Virus record (IMG/VR): IMGVR_UViG_2703719347_000006
Span: 1 to 42,800 of that record
DNA: 42,800 nucleotides
Direction: 5' to 3' (one strand)
DNA from: a virus
Taxonomy: Duplodnaviria > Heunggongvirae > Uroviricota > Caudoviricetes
Position 1 is the stretch's first letter, and each line of letters begins with the position of its first letter. This document shows positions 7,212 to 11,033 of this stretch, in pieces. The notes below the pieces were generated by a model. It was not told the DNA's origin, made no database searches, and saw nothing but the letters and a program-made list of their open reading frames with translations. The position numbers and the translations under genes are program-made.

Positions 7212-7835
7212 CTATGCGGCCTCGGAAGGAAGTCCAATCATCTTATTCAAATCTTCTACCCGTAAAGCAGGAAGTGCTGTACTTGCTTTATCTGCTTCTT
7301 CTGGTAGCAATTCTTTGCTTTCAGGCCAAACTTCAATAAGTCGCTTAACTGTTGTGACTGAGTTCAAAGCAGCCCATACATTTGATTCGATATCCTTTTT
7401 CTTGGCTTCAAGTTTTTGTTGCAATGCGCAGATTTCATCAAACCTTTTTGTTATTTCGTGTTCTGCGCTAAACATGCATTTATCTTTGGTCGGAGTAGGG
7501 AGCAATATATCTTCGCCGTTGCCGTCTTTCCCATATGAATGCCATCCAACCCTTCTGCCAGATACAGTCAGATAAATTGAAGTAGAACTAACATCGTATG
7601 AGTAAAATGAACATCCCATCTTTTCAAGTTCTTCACTTATAGCTACCAACTTGGATGATAACTGATCCACTTCCTCAGTTTTCTTTTTACCGCCAAACGC
7701 AATAACTCTGGCGTCAAGTGCAAGCTGGTTCTTTAACTTTGTTACTTCTTTAAGTTCAGTGAAAACCCCAGACTTAATTAAAGCGTTACGAGCGATTTCC
7801 TCTTTCATTCTCGTAGTTAAGCGGATTGATGACAT
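7212..7835 (-). CDS. Hypothetical early-left protein (207 aa)
   Basis: ATG at 7835 with GAGGA RBS, 11 nt after the N stop; the track's TTG start at 7895 would overlap N and is rejected. Confidence 0.5.
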   Translation of the reverse strand: MSSIRLTTRMKEEIARNALIKSGVFTELKEVTKLKNQLALDARVIAFGGKKKTEEVDQLSSKLVAISEELEKMGCSFYSYDVSSTSIYLTVSGRRVGWHSYGKDGNGEDILLPTPTKDKCMFSAEHEITKRFDEICALQQKLEAKKKDIESNVWAALNSVTTVKRLIEVWPESKELLPEEADKASTALPALRVEDLNKMIGLPSEAA

Positions 7836-7846
7836 ATTAATTCCTC

Positions 7847-8173
7847 TCAAATAAGTGGTTTGCTGCCTAATTTCATTTTCTGGCGACCAACACAAGTCAC
7901 ACCCATTTCACTGCGTGGCTTGCTGTACCATGTGCGCTGATTCTTGCGCTCAATACGTTGCAGGTTGCTTTCAATCTGTTCGTGGTATTCAGCCAGCACC
8001 GTAAGGTCTATCGGATTCAGTGCGCTTTCTACTCGTGATTTCGGTTTGCGATTCAGCGAGAGAATAGGGCGGTTAACTGGTTTTGCGCTTACCCCAACCA
8101 ACAGGGGATTTGCTGCTTTCCATTGAGCCTGTTTCTCTGCGCGACGTTCGCGGCGGCGTGTTTGTGCATCCAT
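7847..8173 (-). CDS. N: Antitermination protein N
   Basis: 108-aa ORF beginning MDAQTRRRERRAEKQAQWKAANPLL (arginine-rich motif); matches lambda N as recalled; preceded by nutL. Confidence 0.9.
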   Translation of the reverse strand: MDAQTRRRERRAEKQAQWKAANPLLVGVSAKPVNRPILSLNRKPKSRVESALNPIDLTVLAEYHEQIESNLQRIERKNQRTWYSKPRSEMGVTCVGRQKMKLGSKPLI

Positions 8174-8371: not shown

Positions 8372-8401
8372 GCCCTTCTTCAGGGCTAAATTTTTAAGAG
8401 C
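8372..8401 (-). promoter_or_regulatory. nutL (boxB hairpin plus boxA) in the N leader
   Basis: Plus-strand gcccttcttcagggc (8372-8386) is the reverse complement of boxB GCCCTGAAGAAGGGC; adjacent ttaagagc (8394-8401) gives boxA GCTCTTAA on the transcript. Confidence 0.7.
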
Positions 8402-8442
8402 CTCACCTTCAATTGTGGTCAGTGCGTCCTGCTGATGACTAA

Positions 8443-8471
8443 ATAGTACGATTTGTACTTTATCGAGTCAA
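8443..8471 (-). promoter_or_regulatory. Putative pL promoter with overlapping operator
   Basis: Minus strand: -35 TTGACT (8471-8466), 17-nt spacer, -10 TACTAT (8448-8443); dyad AGTACGATTTGTACT (8445-8459) overlaps spacer and -10. Confidence 0.45.
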
Positions 8472-8534
8472 TACAAAATGTTCTAAATATAATTAGTTTT
8501 TTATAACGCTTTGTATTTAATGGGTTTATATTTT

Positions 8535-8567
8535 GGAAAAAGAAAACCCGGCGCTGAGGCCGGGTTT
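8535..8567 (-). terminator. Rho-independent terminator after the cI-linked 348-aa gene
   Basis: Stem cccggc (8547-8552) / gccggg (8559-8564) with 6-nt loop; on the minus strand followed by a U-rich run; 12 nt past the ORF stop. Confidence 0.6.
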
Positions 8568-8575
8568 GGAGTGCA

Positions 8576-9622
8576 TCACTCTGGTTCGCTGGGGAATATA
8601 TTTATCAATTGCCCTGTTGAAATGTGCCCATTTTCTACAACCTCTAGGTATGAAATTTCAACAGTTGATTCTTTGGCTACAGCATTCAAAAACTCAAGAA
8701 GCTCATCAGTAGATGTTATGTCGGCTGAGGTCTTTATGGTGAAAGATTCACCATTTGAAACCCTTATGACGTCAATATTTATGTCCTGATTTGTTTCTCC
8801 CGAGCGACGAACGCCCGTGACATAAAAGTTATCTCTTCTAGTTTCCTTTTTTCGATCAATTGATTGTCTTTGGTTTAAGGTATTCAACTGTTCTCTATTT
8901 ACCACTCTCTGACCAATTGTTACCCTCTCAACTGACGAGTCTTGAGCAAGCTTTTTAAGCAACTTGCTTTTACCATCCTCGCCGTGAGCCAGAACCTCTC
9001 TGCTAATGTTTGTTTGACCGCTAATCAACAACTTGAGCACATTGTCTTGTGCTTCGTTTACCGCTTTGGTGCTTTTTTCCACCAATTGCACCTGAGAATC
9101 TTGGTTATGTCGCTGTGTTTCGTAGTACTCATTGATCCACTTATAGCCTACCGTGCTGGCAGCTAAGACGATAGCGGCGACGGCGCATAGTGCTTGCCTT
9201 CCTGTCATTTTGCCTATCGCTTGAGTAAACACTGTCACCACTCCGTTTACAATCGGATCTGAGTCACCATCCGCTTGGCTTGAGCCTTCGCTTATTCGGT
9301 AGACAATATCCAGCAAACCTTTCTCTGCATCTTTTAGCTTCTGCCGATTATGAGTGCTGTGACTGACTACCGTAAATGCTTTTTGTATTTCATGCGTAAG
9401 CTCTGCCATACCAAAAAGCATTGACGCAGTCAATGAAGAATTATATCTATTTGGATCGCCTTTTACATTAATATTGATCTTTGGCCATCCACTGAAAACT
9501 ACGTTAGGGAATGTGAAGTCGCTTGAGTCGATGTCCTTCCTTCCGAGCATTTCTGTTACAAAAGATACAAAGTCGTCTTCTGACTTGATAACATATTGCG
9601 CAGGTTGATCAATCGCTGACAT
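8576..9622 (-). CDS. Membrane protein of unknown function in the rexAB position (candidate lysogen-expressed exclusion protein)
   Basis: 348-aa ORF; ATG 25 nt after the cI stop with AAGGA RBS; one predicted TM segment ALCAVAAIVLAASTVGYKWI followed by a coiled-coil-like stretch; AT-rich by eye; terminator immediately downstream. Confidence 0.7.
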   Translation of the reverse strand: MSAIDQPAQYVIKSEDDFVSFVTEMLGRKDIDSSDFTFPNVVFSGWPKININVKGDPNRYNSSLTASMLFGMAELTHEIQKAFTVVSHSTHNRQKLKDAEKGLLDIVYRISEGSSQADGDSDPIVNGVVTVFTQAIGKMTGRQALCAVAAIVLAASTVGYKWINEYYETQRHNQDSQVQLVEKSTKAVNEAQDNVLKLLISGQTNISREVLAHGEDGKSKLLKKLAQDSSVERVTIGQRVVNREQLNTLNQRQSIDRKKETRRDNFYVTGVRRSGETNQDINIDVIRVSNGESFTIKTSADITSTDELLEFLNAVAKESTVEISYLEVVENGHISTGQLINIFPSEPE

Positions 9623-9647
9623 TCTTAATCCTTAACATCCATTCCTA

Positions 9648-10307
9648 TCACCCAAACGTCTCTTCTGGCCACTGGCTGGCGATAACTTTCCCTACAACGG
9701 AACAGCTATCATTGCATGGGATCATTGGATATTGCGGGTTTAGTGGTTGTAGGAACACCTGACCGCTATCCCTGATCAGTTTCTTGAAGGTAAACTCGTC
9801 ACCACCAAGTCTGGCTATGCAGAAATCACCTGGCTCAACAGCCTGCTCAGGGTCAACGAGAATTAACATCCCGTCAGGAAAGCTTGGCTTGGATCCTGTT
9901 GGTGCGGTCATGGAATTACCTTCAACTTCAAGCCAGAACGCACAATCACTGGCTTTTTTGGTTGTGCTGACCCATCTCTCCGCATCACCTTTCGTAAAGG
10001 TTCTAAGCTCAGGCGAGAACATCCCGGCCTGAACATGAGAAAAAACAGGGTACTCATATTGTTTTTTAACGGGGGCAGATGAGTATTCGCCAACAGGTGA
10101 AAATGTACCGTCGTGGTTGAATGAGACGTTATCAATACCAAGGTATTTAAACACCACACCAATCTCGTCAAGAGATGGATGACGAGATCCGCGCAACCAG
10201 TGACCAATTCCACCCTGCGTCATACCAAGCTCTTCAGCTAACTTCTCTTGAGTTATGCCGAGCTCTTTCATTCTGGATCTAGCCAGTTCATACCATTTCA
10301 TTTTCAT
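9648..10307 (-). CDS. cI: cI-type prophage repressor (HTH N-terminal domain, LexA-like S24 C-terminal domain)
   Basis: C-terminal half [21 protein letters not shown]...[15 protein letters not shown]...FTFKKL matches lambda cI as recalled; N-terminal HTH differs; start at 10307 or 10301 preferred because the track start 10370 falls inside the pR -35. Confidence 0.85.
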
Positions 10308-10316
10308 ACCCTTATT

Positions 10317-10331
10317 ATTACGCTCTGTACT
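10317..10331. promoter_or_regulatory. Putative operator site (oR, cI-proximal)
   Basis: ATTACGCTCTGTACT shares the 13-mer TACG-N5-GTACT with sites at 8447-8459 and 10377-10389. Confidence 0.45.
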
Positions 10332-10364
10332 AAAACCATCCACGCACAAGATGTATTTTTTTGT

Positions 10365-10393
10365 TTGCATTCTAAAAGTACATATCGTATTAT
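10365..10393 (+). promoter_or_regulatory. Putative pR promoter with embedded operator
   Basis: -35 TTGCAT (10365-10370), 17-nt spacer, -10 TATTAT (10388-10393); operator-like 13-mer at 10377-10389 lies in the spacer. Confidence 0.5.
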
Positions 10394-10419
10394 TGTTTCA
10401 TGGTTACTATGGAGGGCAT

Positions 10420-10635
10420 ATGAGCAACCTACGAAAATATCGAGAGTCACTGAATATCTCTCAAACAACACTTGCTAAGGCAGTTGGATGCACACAGGGA
10501 GCTATCGGACATTGGGAATCTGGTCGTCGCTTCCCAGACCTTAAAACATGCCGTGCTCTTGTTGAGTGCCTAAACAAGTTAGGCGCAAAAGTCAGTCTTG
10601 ATGACGTGTTCCCGCCGGAACACAAAGCCGCTTAA
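10420..10635 (+). CDS. cro: Cro-like HTH regulator
   Basis: 71-aa ORF from ATG 10420 with GGAGGG RBS; XRE-type HTH ISQTTLAKAVGCTQGAIGHWESG; divergent from cI. Confidence 0.75.
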   Translation: MSNLRKYRESLNISQTTLAKAVGCTQGAIGHWESGRRFPDLKTCRALVECLNKLGAKVSLDDVFPPEHKAA

Positions 10636-10643
10636 GACATTCC

Positions 10644-10675
10644 CGCTCTTACACATCCCAGCCCTGAAAAAGGGC
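10644..10675 (+). promoter_or_regulatory. nutR (boxA CGCTCTTA plus boxB hairpin)
   Basis: cgctctta at 10644-10651 and gccctgaaaaagggc at 10661-10675, matching lambda nutR as recalled. Confidence 0.75.
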
Positions 10676-10754
10676 ATCAAATTAAACCACACCTATGGTG
10701 TATGCATTTATTTGCATACATTCAATCAATTGTTATCTAAGGAAATACTTACAT

Positions 10755-11033
10755 ATGCAACTTACAAGTACTCGCAAGAAAGCGAATGCAATTACAAGCA
10801 ACATCCTGAATCGAATTGCTGTACGTGGTCAGCGAAAGGTTGCCGACGCGTTAGGGATTAATGAATCGCAAATTTCGCGATGGAAAGACAGCTTTATCCC
10901 AAAGATGGCCATGCTTCTGGCTGTGCTGGAGTGGGGTGTTGAAGACGAGGAATTAGCGGAGCTGGCAAAGAAAGTAGCCATGGTGCTGACAAAAGAAAAG
11001 CCTCAAGACTGCGGCAACAGTTTTGAGGCCTGA
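10755..11033 (+). CDS. cII: cII-like transcriptional activator
   Basis: 92-aa ORF from ATG 10755 with AAGGAAA RBS; motif ESQISRWKDSFIPKMAMLLAVLEWGV resembles lambda cII. Confidence 0.75.
   Translation: MQLTSTRKKANAITSNILNRIAVRGQRKVADALGINESQISRWKDSFIPKMAMLLAVLEWGVEDEELAELAKKVAMVLTKEKPQDCGNSFEA

Follow-up and report, generated by a model that had tools for sequence, protein, structure and literature searches.

In the lambda-like prophage on IMG/VR virus record IMGVR_UViG_2703719347_000006 (positions 1 to 42,800; this stretch of 42,800 nt is referred to as the window), the position that rexA and rexB take in lambda is filled by a single gene downstream of cI. It lies at 8576..9622 on the minus strand and encodes a protein of 348 residues, here called the cargo protein. 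Judging from the sequence, it is an accessory ('moron') gene of the prophage, most likely one that protects the lysogen from other phages. We put slightly better than even chances on its product being a lysogen-expressed, membrane-associated protein of anti-phage exclusion or defence. This reading draws on the slot in which the gene is found, which can be empty, hold this gene, hold an allele 24% identical to it, or hold unrelated cargos that include validated defence systems.

The gene is real and under strong purifying selection. Against an 87%-identical homologue, the proportion of nonsynonymous differences (pN) was 0.071 and that of synonymous differences (pS) 0.70, giving a dN/dS of ~0.04. 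An exhaustive profile search through 1.84 billion cluster representatives (50% identity) retrieved 952 clusters at E≤1e-3, of which 600 reached E≤1e-10. Almost all of the 952 encode proteins of 310–360 residues that match end to end, and they are spread through the Gammaproteobacteria; many distant relatives align to the family profile over the N-terminal half only. Named members include Pseudoalteromonas and Pseudomonas cichorii, as well as one Pasteurella phage. Additionally, a word-indexed search returned 56 Enterobacterales relatives, all of them labelled 'hypothetical protein' and none with a Pfam domain.

The only profile to match the cargo protein was phrog_6191 (PHROGs v4; E 4.4e-36, 125.7 bits, residues 7–342 against profile positions 5–331 of 338). 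Since phrog_6191 has no annotated function, membership is uninformative about the role of the protein. Searches of Pfam, NCBIfam and PADLOC found no family match for the window protein, and a search of the PDB with its single sequence found none either. When 76 diverse members were searched against Pfam and PADLOC there was again no family match, PADLOC returning singleton matches at noise level. Weak Pfam and NCBIfam matches to FtsH_ext, fvmX3-analog and PriA fell far under the cut-offs and did not recur across the 76 members, and the best PDB profile match, the transmembrane region of MotB (E 0.01), is noise driven by the hydrophobic helix.

The cargo gene and the elements that define its transcription unit are as follows.

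8576..9622, minus strand: cargo gene, 348-residue open reading frame, member of phrog_6191 and of the uncharacterised 952-cluster family
9648..10370, minus strand: cI-type repressor with HTH_3 and Peptidase_S24 domains (Pfam), the upstream gene in the transcription unit of the cargo gene
9629..9633, minus strand: Shine-Dalgarno sequence AAGGA, 6 nt before the cargo ATG and inside the 25-nt gap after the cI stop
8534..8567, minus strand: intrinsic terminator of the immunity transcript (9-bp stem with 6 GC pairs, T-run), from a terminator scan, with the hairpin at 8567..8544
8372..8471, minus strand: downstream boundary of the slot, with a pL-like promoter (8471..8443), a boxA-like element (8389-8402) and boxB (8372-8386)

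By its placement in the cI transcription unit, the cargo gene is presumably transcribed together with cI in the lysogen. There is no intervening terminator between the two genes, and within the first 80 codons of 8576..9622 no further in-frame start is preceded by a Shine-Dalgarno sequence. In a search for an internal promoter like pLIT of lambda, one weak -35/-10 match within the open reading frame was no better than those in shuffled sequence. In lambda, the cI-rexA-rexB transcript from pRM terminates at this same terminator. More generally, genes at the position downstream of a prophage repressor presumably use the repressor's promoter (Owen et al., PMC8585504; independently PMC12315714).

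Most of an initial annotation, made from the sequence alone, agrees with these results. The single open reading frame lies in the rexA/rexB position exactly as it claimed, with a good ribosome-binding site and an ATG 25 nt after the cI stop (9648 to 9622). The terminator that it placed 12 nt after the cargo stop is present; the distance needs correcting to 8 nt, or to 11 nt when measured to the CCCGGC core. It had called N, nutL and the C-terminal domain of cI lambda-like, and we found N to be 91% identical to that of lambda, boxB to be identical, and the repressor, with its Peptidase_S24 domain, to share 65% identity with lambda cI. Its remark that the gene is AT-rich relative to its flanks was borne out by a GC check (0.42 in the open reading frame, 0.46 in cI and 0.50 in the window). 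It had recognised no motif, as the searches above confirmed, and no structural or housekeeping family was matched. Lastly, it had described the position as a classic one for exclusion or abortive-infection genes, and the slot is indeed a hotspot that carries validated defence systems elsewhere.

The slot between cI and the terminator

The terminator is shared between phages whose slots hold different genes. A 26-nt core at 8539-8564 (CCCGGCCTCAGCGCCGGGTTTTCTTT) is identical in the window, lambda, mEp332 and E. coli CFS3246, and the lambda copy begins directly after the rexB stop codon. In the phages Dewey and vB_EcoP-720R6 the slot is empty: the same hairpin comes immediately behind cI and differs in its stem by a compensatory G-C to A-T exchange. 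Relative to window 8539-8564, the two empty-slot loci (L006:2639-2664 and L007:2639-2664) show paired substitutions, G to A on the 5' side of the stem and C to T on its 3' side, together with one loop change, a covariation that preserves the hairpin. The shared terminator and the empty slots together define a cargo slot that begins at the cI stop codon and ends at the immunity-transcript terminator.

To see what else the slot holds, viral contigs were scanned for the exact terminator, which gave at least 80 loci; the 80 listed loci that we examined are a sample. Among these 80, the interval between repressor and terminator showed at least ~30 gene arrangements and at least ~25 unrelated cargo families, with RexAB present once and the window-type gene twice. 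Of 25 cargo representatives searched with PADLOC, matches were obtained to BstA (E 4e-106), to PD-Lambda-2 A and B (E 2.5e-42 and 3.8e-50), to a Ser/Thr kinase resembling PD-T4-6 (E 1e-37; Pfam Pkinase), and to the candidate systems PDC-M63 and PDC-S43. Both BstA (PMC8585504) and PD-lambda-2 (10.1101/2022.05.12.491691) are experimentally validated abortive-infection systems. Owen et al. (PMC8585504) had already termed the interval between cI and N a mosaic hotspot. Thus, the hotspot was previously known, and it is the cargo family that is new.

Most cargo families in the slot (loci L058-L137, IMG/VR, located through the 26-nt terminator) have no Pfam or PADLOC match. They include a 98-residue protein with a hydrophobic helix (at least 12 loci; for example L136:11111-11407:+) and a 258-residue DUF1828 protein with a partner of 180 or 185 residues (at least ~10 loci). 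Other cargos are a ParA/MinD-like protein of 347 residues, an SDH-protease-like protein of 334 residues, and several uncharacterised proteins of 285–310 residues. Further example coordinates are L068:7237-8013:+, L096:2056-2613:-, L100:1568-2611:+, L114:692-1696:+ and L104:4612-5511:-. We regard the unmatched cargos as further candidate defence genes. Additionally, a 113-residue protein with no assigned function lies directly after cI (L079:10424-10765:-, L033:2672-3013:+), upstream of the Ser/Thr-kinase cassette at 13 or more loci or, in L033, upstream of a member of the present family; it could be an adaptor, or a small cargo in its own right.

The cargo gene itself behaves as a mobile cassette. 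The initial annotation had asked whether the locus in related prophages holds rexAB or other cargo, and in related phages and loci with the same terminator we found the slot empty, or occupied by the 24%-identical allele, by RexAB or by other genes. E. coli CFS3246 has the same flanks as the window, Nmad5 and N included, but the mEp332 allele in the slot; its product shares 100% identity with the mEp332 protein and ~24% with that of the window. In IMG/VR prophages, a gene 99–100% identical to that of the window is found behind four or more different S24 repressors, with diverged copies behind others. The repressor is likewise followed by a diverged member in Yersinia lambdoid prophages and a P2/186-like phage, and a second P2-like phage has one in the same position.

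Members of the family are found in other settings as well: beside int/xis at a prophage edge adjoining host icd, directly after smpB and the tmRNA gene, or beside tail-tip and tail-fibre genes. No conserved partner gene emerged, the neighbours being different in every context that was looked at. The neighbours of chromosomal relatives include a TIR-like protein (E 5e-7), an AbiEi/AbiEii pair together with a NERD-domain protein, and a member of the PLD family. Several large genes next to these non-prophage relatives (L055:3961-4842:+; L056:6152-8191:- and 9096-10980; L177:5912-7186:-) carry no annotation, and these loci may be uncharted defence islands.

Predicted architecture and topology

We modelled the protein with AlphaFold. 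An alignment of 20 sequences gave a predicted local distance difference test score (pLDDT) of 63, and 76 diverse sequences raised this to 87.4, with a predicted template modelling score (pTM) of 0.77. The following parts were delimited from the model and from family conservation.

9209..9622, minus strand: predicted N-terminal alpha/beta domain, residues 1–138, acidic and the best-conserved part; motifs F43-x-G-W-P47, G55, Y60-x-S-S-x-T65 and G113-S-S115
9140..9208, minus strand: putative juxtamembrane motif M139-x-G141 and hydrophobic helix, residues 141–161, with a small-residue face (A/G150, G/A156, G159)
8855..9139, minus strand: variable linker (residues 162–185), helices (186–226) and beta unit (231–242), from predicted secondary structure and pLDDT
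8594..8854, minus strand: predicted C-terminal oligonucleotide/oligosaccharide-binding (OB) fold domain, residues 257–343, which evolves faster than the N-terminal domain

Across 209 members, conservation is highest in the N-terminal domain and lowest in the linker and C-terminal half, and relatives vary in the length of the linker region and carry low-complexity inserts there (for example P0147). No fold match was found for the N-terminal domain. Residues 257–343 are predicted to fold into a barrel of five strands, with a helix between strands, and the predicted barrel superposes on known OB-folds. Relatives that align over the N-terminal half only were considered as carriers of alternative C-terminal domains, and their C-terminal halves proved to be diverged versions of the same architecture. 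A number of family records (P0005, P0006, P0044, P0045, P0047 and P0050; 279–281 residues) start in NCBI at the equivalent of Met68, dropping conserved residues 9–60 with the F-x-G-W-P and G55 motifs, and one Rahnella contig holds 343-residue and 279-residue versions of what is seemingly one gene. These short records are probably start-codon mis-annotations.

The most-conserved residues are mainly Gly, Trp, Pro, Phe, Leu and Met (F43, W46, P47, G55, L96, G113, M139), and the family alignment contains no near-invariant acidic or basic residue. This pattern gives no sign of an enzyme. The median net charge of the N-terminal domain is -6, with a positive value in 2% of members, and the OB domain too is mildly acidic, which argues against general binding of nucleic acids.

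The one central hydrophobic helix claimed at the outset, ALCAVAAIVLAASTVGYKWI, is the sole such segment of the protein (Kyte-Doolittle 1.72). The 'coiled-coil-like stretch' said to follow it did not hold up; in its place the model has a disordered linker (residues 172–184), two helices (186–226) and the OB-fold. Within the family, the best 19-residue Kyte-Doolittle window has a median of 1.77 and reaches at least 1.2 in 98% of the 209 members, M139 is present in 199 of them and G159 in 162. None of 76 aligned members has a second hydrophobic segment or a signal-peptide-like N-terminus. The conserved single helix, its small-residue face and the near-invariant Met139-x-Gly141 make it likely, as far as sequence can indicate, that the protein associates with the membrane through this helix.

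Three topologies were considered: a bitopic protein with the N-terminus in and the C-terminus out, a monotopic protein with both halves cytoplasmic, and a helix that stays buried until activation. Two topology clues gave no guidance. The positive-inside rule was uninformative, the N-terminal flank being the more basic in 104 members and the C-terminal flank in 75. Additionally, two cysteines that are invariant in the mEp332 branch had suggested a disulfide, and both occur in 8 of the 209 members, with a single cysteine in another 8.

A non-bitopic arrangement, which we judge less likely than not, is worth setting out. Either the helix would serve as a monotopic or re-entrant anchor, leaving both halves on the cytoplasmic side, or it would be buried in a soluble, perhaps oligomeric, resting state and be exposed on activation only; this alternative is anatomical and independent of function. 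Residues 172–184 score below 50 in pLDDT and yet the pTM is 0.77; the model is thus confident of how the two halves are placed across a disordered linker, which would be unexpected for halves on opposite sides of a membrane. Lys and Arg counts on the two flanks of the helix are nearly equal (2.14 vs 2.21), as expected if both flanks face the cytoplasm. In the model the helix spans residues 141–155 and resumes to 171 after a break at 156–159; this break at the conserved Gly159 is followed by an aromatic amphipathic helix (YKWINEYYETQR, hydrophobic moment 0.45), and the window helix is marginally hydrophobic. Against this, a hairpin would need a longer uncharged stretch than is present (median 17 residues), and some alleles are strongly hydrophobic (2.09 for mEp332 vs 1.72 for the window). 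Moreover, AlphaFold is blind to membranes and may read contacts between subunits as contacts within a chain.

Candidate functions and known systems

Several points weigh against the reading of the cargo protein as a membrane-associated defence protein of the lysogen. The reading rests on position and neighbours and is in that sense guilt by association. The genes in the slot are not all defence genes: RexA and RexB also affect the switch of lambda itself, and bstA first came to notice through virulence phenotypes (PMC8585504). No catalytic or pore-forming signature is present in the protein. None of the 5027 defence protein models of PADLOC-DB v2.0.0 (2023) matches, computationally predicted PDC candidates included, and the allele occurs in 18 of 5426 complete E. 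coli genomes. There is no clear positive-inside bias, and the predicted contact between the halves fits poorly with a simple bitopic sensor. Finally, searches by phage names, accessions and PHROG id found no publications on the protein, and the PhiR12 or mEp332 homologues may have been tested before.

If the protein does act in defence, we propose the following mechanism. The hydrophobic helix would anchor it in the inner membrane, the variable C-terminal OB module would recognise some part of an infecting phage other than its nucleic acid, such as a protein, and the conserved N-terminal domain together with the helix would serve as a constant output module. Recognition would trigger self-association of the helix through its small-residue face, membrane integrity would be lost, and the infection would be aborted with an outcome like that of RexB. 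We offer this specific abortive mechanism tentatively and hold it to be a good deal less probable than the defence role as such. Between an abortive mechanism and a non-abortive block of genome entry we lean slightly to the former, because the validated neighbours in the slot are abortive, the conserved half holds a helix with a packing face, and there is no enzymatic domain.

The alternative is superinfection exclusion that the cell survives. An inner-membrane protein with its stalk and OB-fold in the periplasm would block genome entry, the OB-fold binding the tail tip, the tape measure, ejection proteins or a host channel that phages use; with no signal peptide, the N-terminal domain would remain cytoplasmic. 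Exclusion is known for HK97 gp15, lactococcal Sie2009 and TP-J34 Ltp. Indeed, most known single-gene prophage membrane proteins act in this way, P22 SieA among them (PMC10883804). A helix followed by a linker of variable length, helices and a globular domain is a typical layout of bitopic proteins that face the periplasm, and the best OB matches include several proteins that are secreted or periplasmic (SilF/CusF, YgiW, AB5 B subunits). The acidic and fast-evolving OB domain is also what would be expected of a surface tracking phage proteins. However, a highly conserved cytoplasmic domain of 140 residues has no obvious role in a pure entry block, the modelled contact between the halves and the lack of a clear positive-inside bias do not favour a bitopic protein, and the validated cargos of the slot (RexAB, BstA, PD-lambda-2) are abortive systems. 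On balance, we regard pure exclusion as rather unlikely in itself, yet as nearly as likely as the abortive outcome.

A further reading, which we hold with still less confidence, makes the cargo protein a new and widespread single-protein immune sensor across or at the inner membrane. Its hypervariable OB domain would detect a phage component at the envelope, and the N-terminal domain, whose predicted fold had not been seen before, would execute the response via the Met-x-Gly motif and the hydrophobic helix. If so, this would be a receptor-like architecture without a counterpart among described bacterial defence systems, and the slot would be a source of ~20 more undescribed systems.

It is improbable, in our estimate, that the gene is a factor of lysogenic conversion or prophage housekeeping with no role against other phages, such as an envelope protein affecting virulence, biofilm or host fitness, or a factor that tunes the choice between lysogeny and lysis of the prophage itself. 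Such roles have precedents. Prophage-edge positions hold non-defence morons too; one example is the large multi-helix membrane protein two genes downstream in L027, which from its sequence we take to be an enzyme of the lipid A phosphoethanolamine-transferase type. Deletion of phi458 alters biofilm and virulence of its avian pathogenic E. coli host (PMC9701743; the open reading frame is not discussed there), RexA is described as biasing the lambda switch (PMC11077077), and the virulence phenotypes by which bstA was first reported point the same way. Against these stand alleles of 24% identity that swap between identical flanks and a fast-evolving C-terminal half, which fit an arms race better than housekeeping. 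Additionally, the chromosomal relatives have defence-type neighbours, and linkage that is independent of the type of repressor argues against a role in one particular switch.

The closest comparison by position is RexA/RexB. The cargo gene shares their slot and transcription unit downstream of cI, and both end at the same 26-nt terminator hairpin; like the cargo protein in our reading, RexAB is lysogen-expressed with a membrane component (RexB). Unlike RexAB, the cargo is one gene rather than two, with no sequence relationship to either Rex protein and with an unmatched N-terminal domain and an OB-fold. RexB is a multi-pass membrane protein, whereas the cargo protein has one hydrophobic segment, as do the 76 members tested, and that segment is conserved across 209. 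RexAB has been described as an abortive-infection system (PMC8585504). The position of rexAB and a length of roughly rexA plus part of rexB might suggest a chance open reading frame or a frameshifted rexA/rexB remnant or fusion, and this is negligibly probable given hhalign probabilities for the 76-sequence family profile of 0.3% against RexA (11 aligned columns) and 0.2% against RexB, no PADLOC Rex match, the dN/dS, the 952 clusters and a confident AlphaFold model.

Similar to the cargo gene, bstA of prophage BTP1 and its relatives is a single-gene cargo downstream of a prophage repressor and presumably shares its promoter (PMC8585504). A BstA homologue occupies the slot between cI and the terminator in other phages with the same terminator. 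The cargo family, in contrast, does not match the PADLOC BstA model. BstA is reported to localise where phage DNA is replicated, and is not described as having a membrane helix.

The homologues from PhiR12 and mEp332 carry the GenBank label 'T2SS GspM containing protein'. The GspM family (T2SSM, PF04612) scored 13.4 bits against a cut-off of 27.8 (E 0.094), and none of the 76 members matched at E≤0.01. There is a superficial likeness, in that both have one helix that precedes further helices and a small alpha/beta domain at the C-terminus. The periplasmic domain of GspM is ferredoxin-like, whereas the C-terminal domain of the cargo protein is predicted to be an OB-fold barrel; GspM also has no 140-residue N-terminal domain, and the cargo gene lies in a prophage, not in a secretion operon. 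With a sub-threshold score, a match that is not family-wide and a different fold, the label is unsupported.

Single prophage-encoded, membrane-anchored proteins that protect the lysogen offer another parallel, and lactococcal AbiP is of this kind. P22 SieA and S. aureus PdpSau are likewise (PMC10883804, PMC10127798). The cargo protein has no sequence match to these three, none of which joins a large conserved N-terminal domain, a central helix and a C-terminal OB-fold, and the PADLOC Abi and Sie-type models do not match the family. The likeness to small OB-folds (CusF/SilF, AB5-toxin B subunits, BOF/YgiW, SSB/PriB) is at the level of fold only, with 4–15% identity and no shared ligand-binding motif; the cargo OB domain is mildly acidic, unlike typical binders of single-stranded DNA.

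Repressor-linked exclusion cargo of prophages is thus already known; the family, its N-terminal domain and its architecture have no described counterpart. Genes co-expressed with a prophage repressor decide which other phages infect the lysogen, a matter that bears on phage therapy, E. coli ecology and immune mechanisms. This family of at least 952 gammaproteobacterial clusters is unnamed, yet it shares a slot with RexAB, BstA, PD-lambda-2 and a defence kinase, and if its defence role is true it would be a new defence family with an unmatched conserved domain. The cargo is a single short gene (~1 kb) that occurs in natural alleles and has a confidently modelled product, and it is amenable to direct testing. 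Additionally, the fixed 26-nt terminator provides a handle for the systematic harvest of hotspot cargo, which is mostly uncharacterised.

Neighbouring genes in the window

Over the region tested, the prophage shares ~99.5% identity with Escherichia phage phi458, and the phi458 paper (PMC9701743) makes no mention of the open reading frame. Two genes lie beyond the downstream boundary of the slot.

7847-8173: N gene with an N36 Pfam domain, reached from the pL-like promoter and nutL
7212-7895, minus strand: gene with an Nmad5 domain (nucleotide modification associated domain 5; Pfam E 1.8e-71, phrog_1965) that immediately follows N in the pL operon

The nutL boxB at 8372-8386 was also picked up by the terminator scan as a 'terminator-like' match on the plus strand; this is the boxB hairpin in opposite orientation (GCCCTGAAGAAGGGC on the minus strand) and no terminator. 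In the phi458 record, N is named just 'hypothetical protein; gene 37 protein' and cro is unannotated.

The repressor is annotated as CI or as LexA family in phi458 and in E. coli genomes. Its start may lie downstream of 10370 and is annotated inconsistently: the longest open reading frame has 240 residues, the phi458 GenBank record 191, and the close homologue in RefSeq ~231. Similarly, the longest open reading frame of the Nmad5 gene runs into the 3' end of N, and the real start is probably an ATG near 7835. The Nmad5 gene is annotated in E. coli CFS3246 as well.

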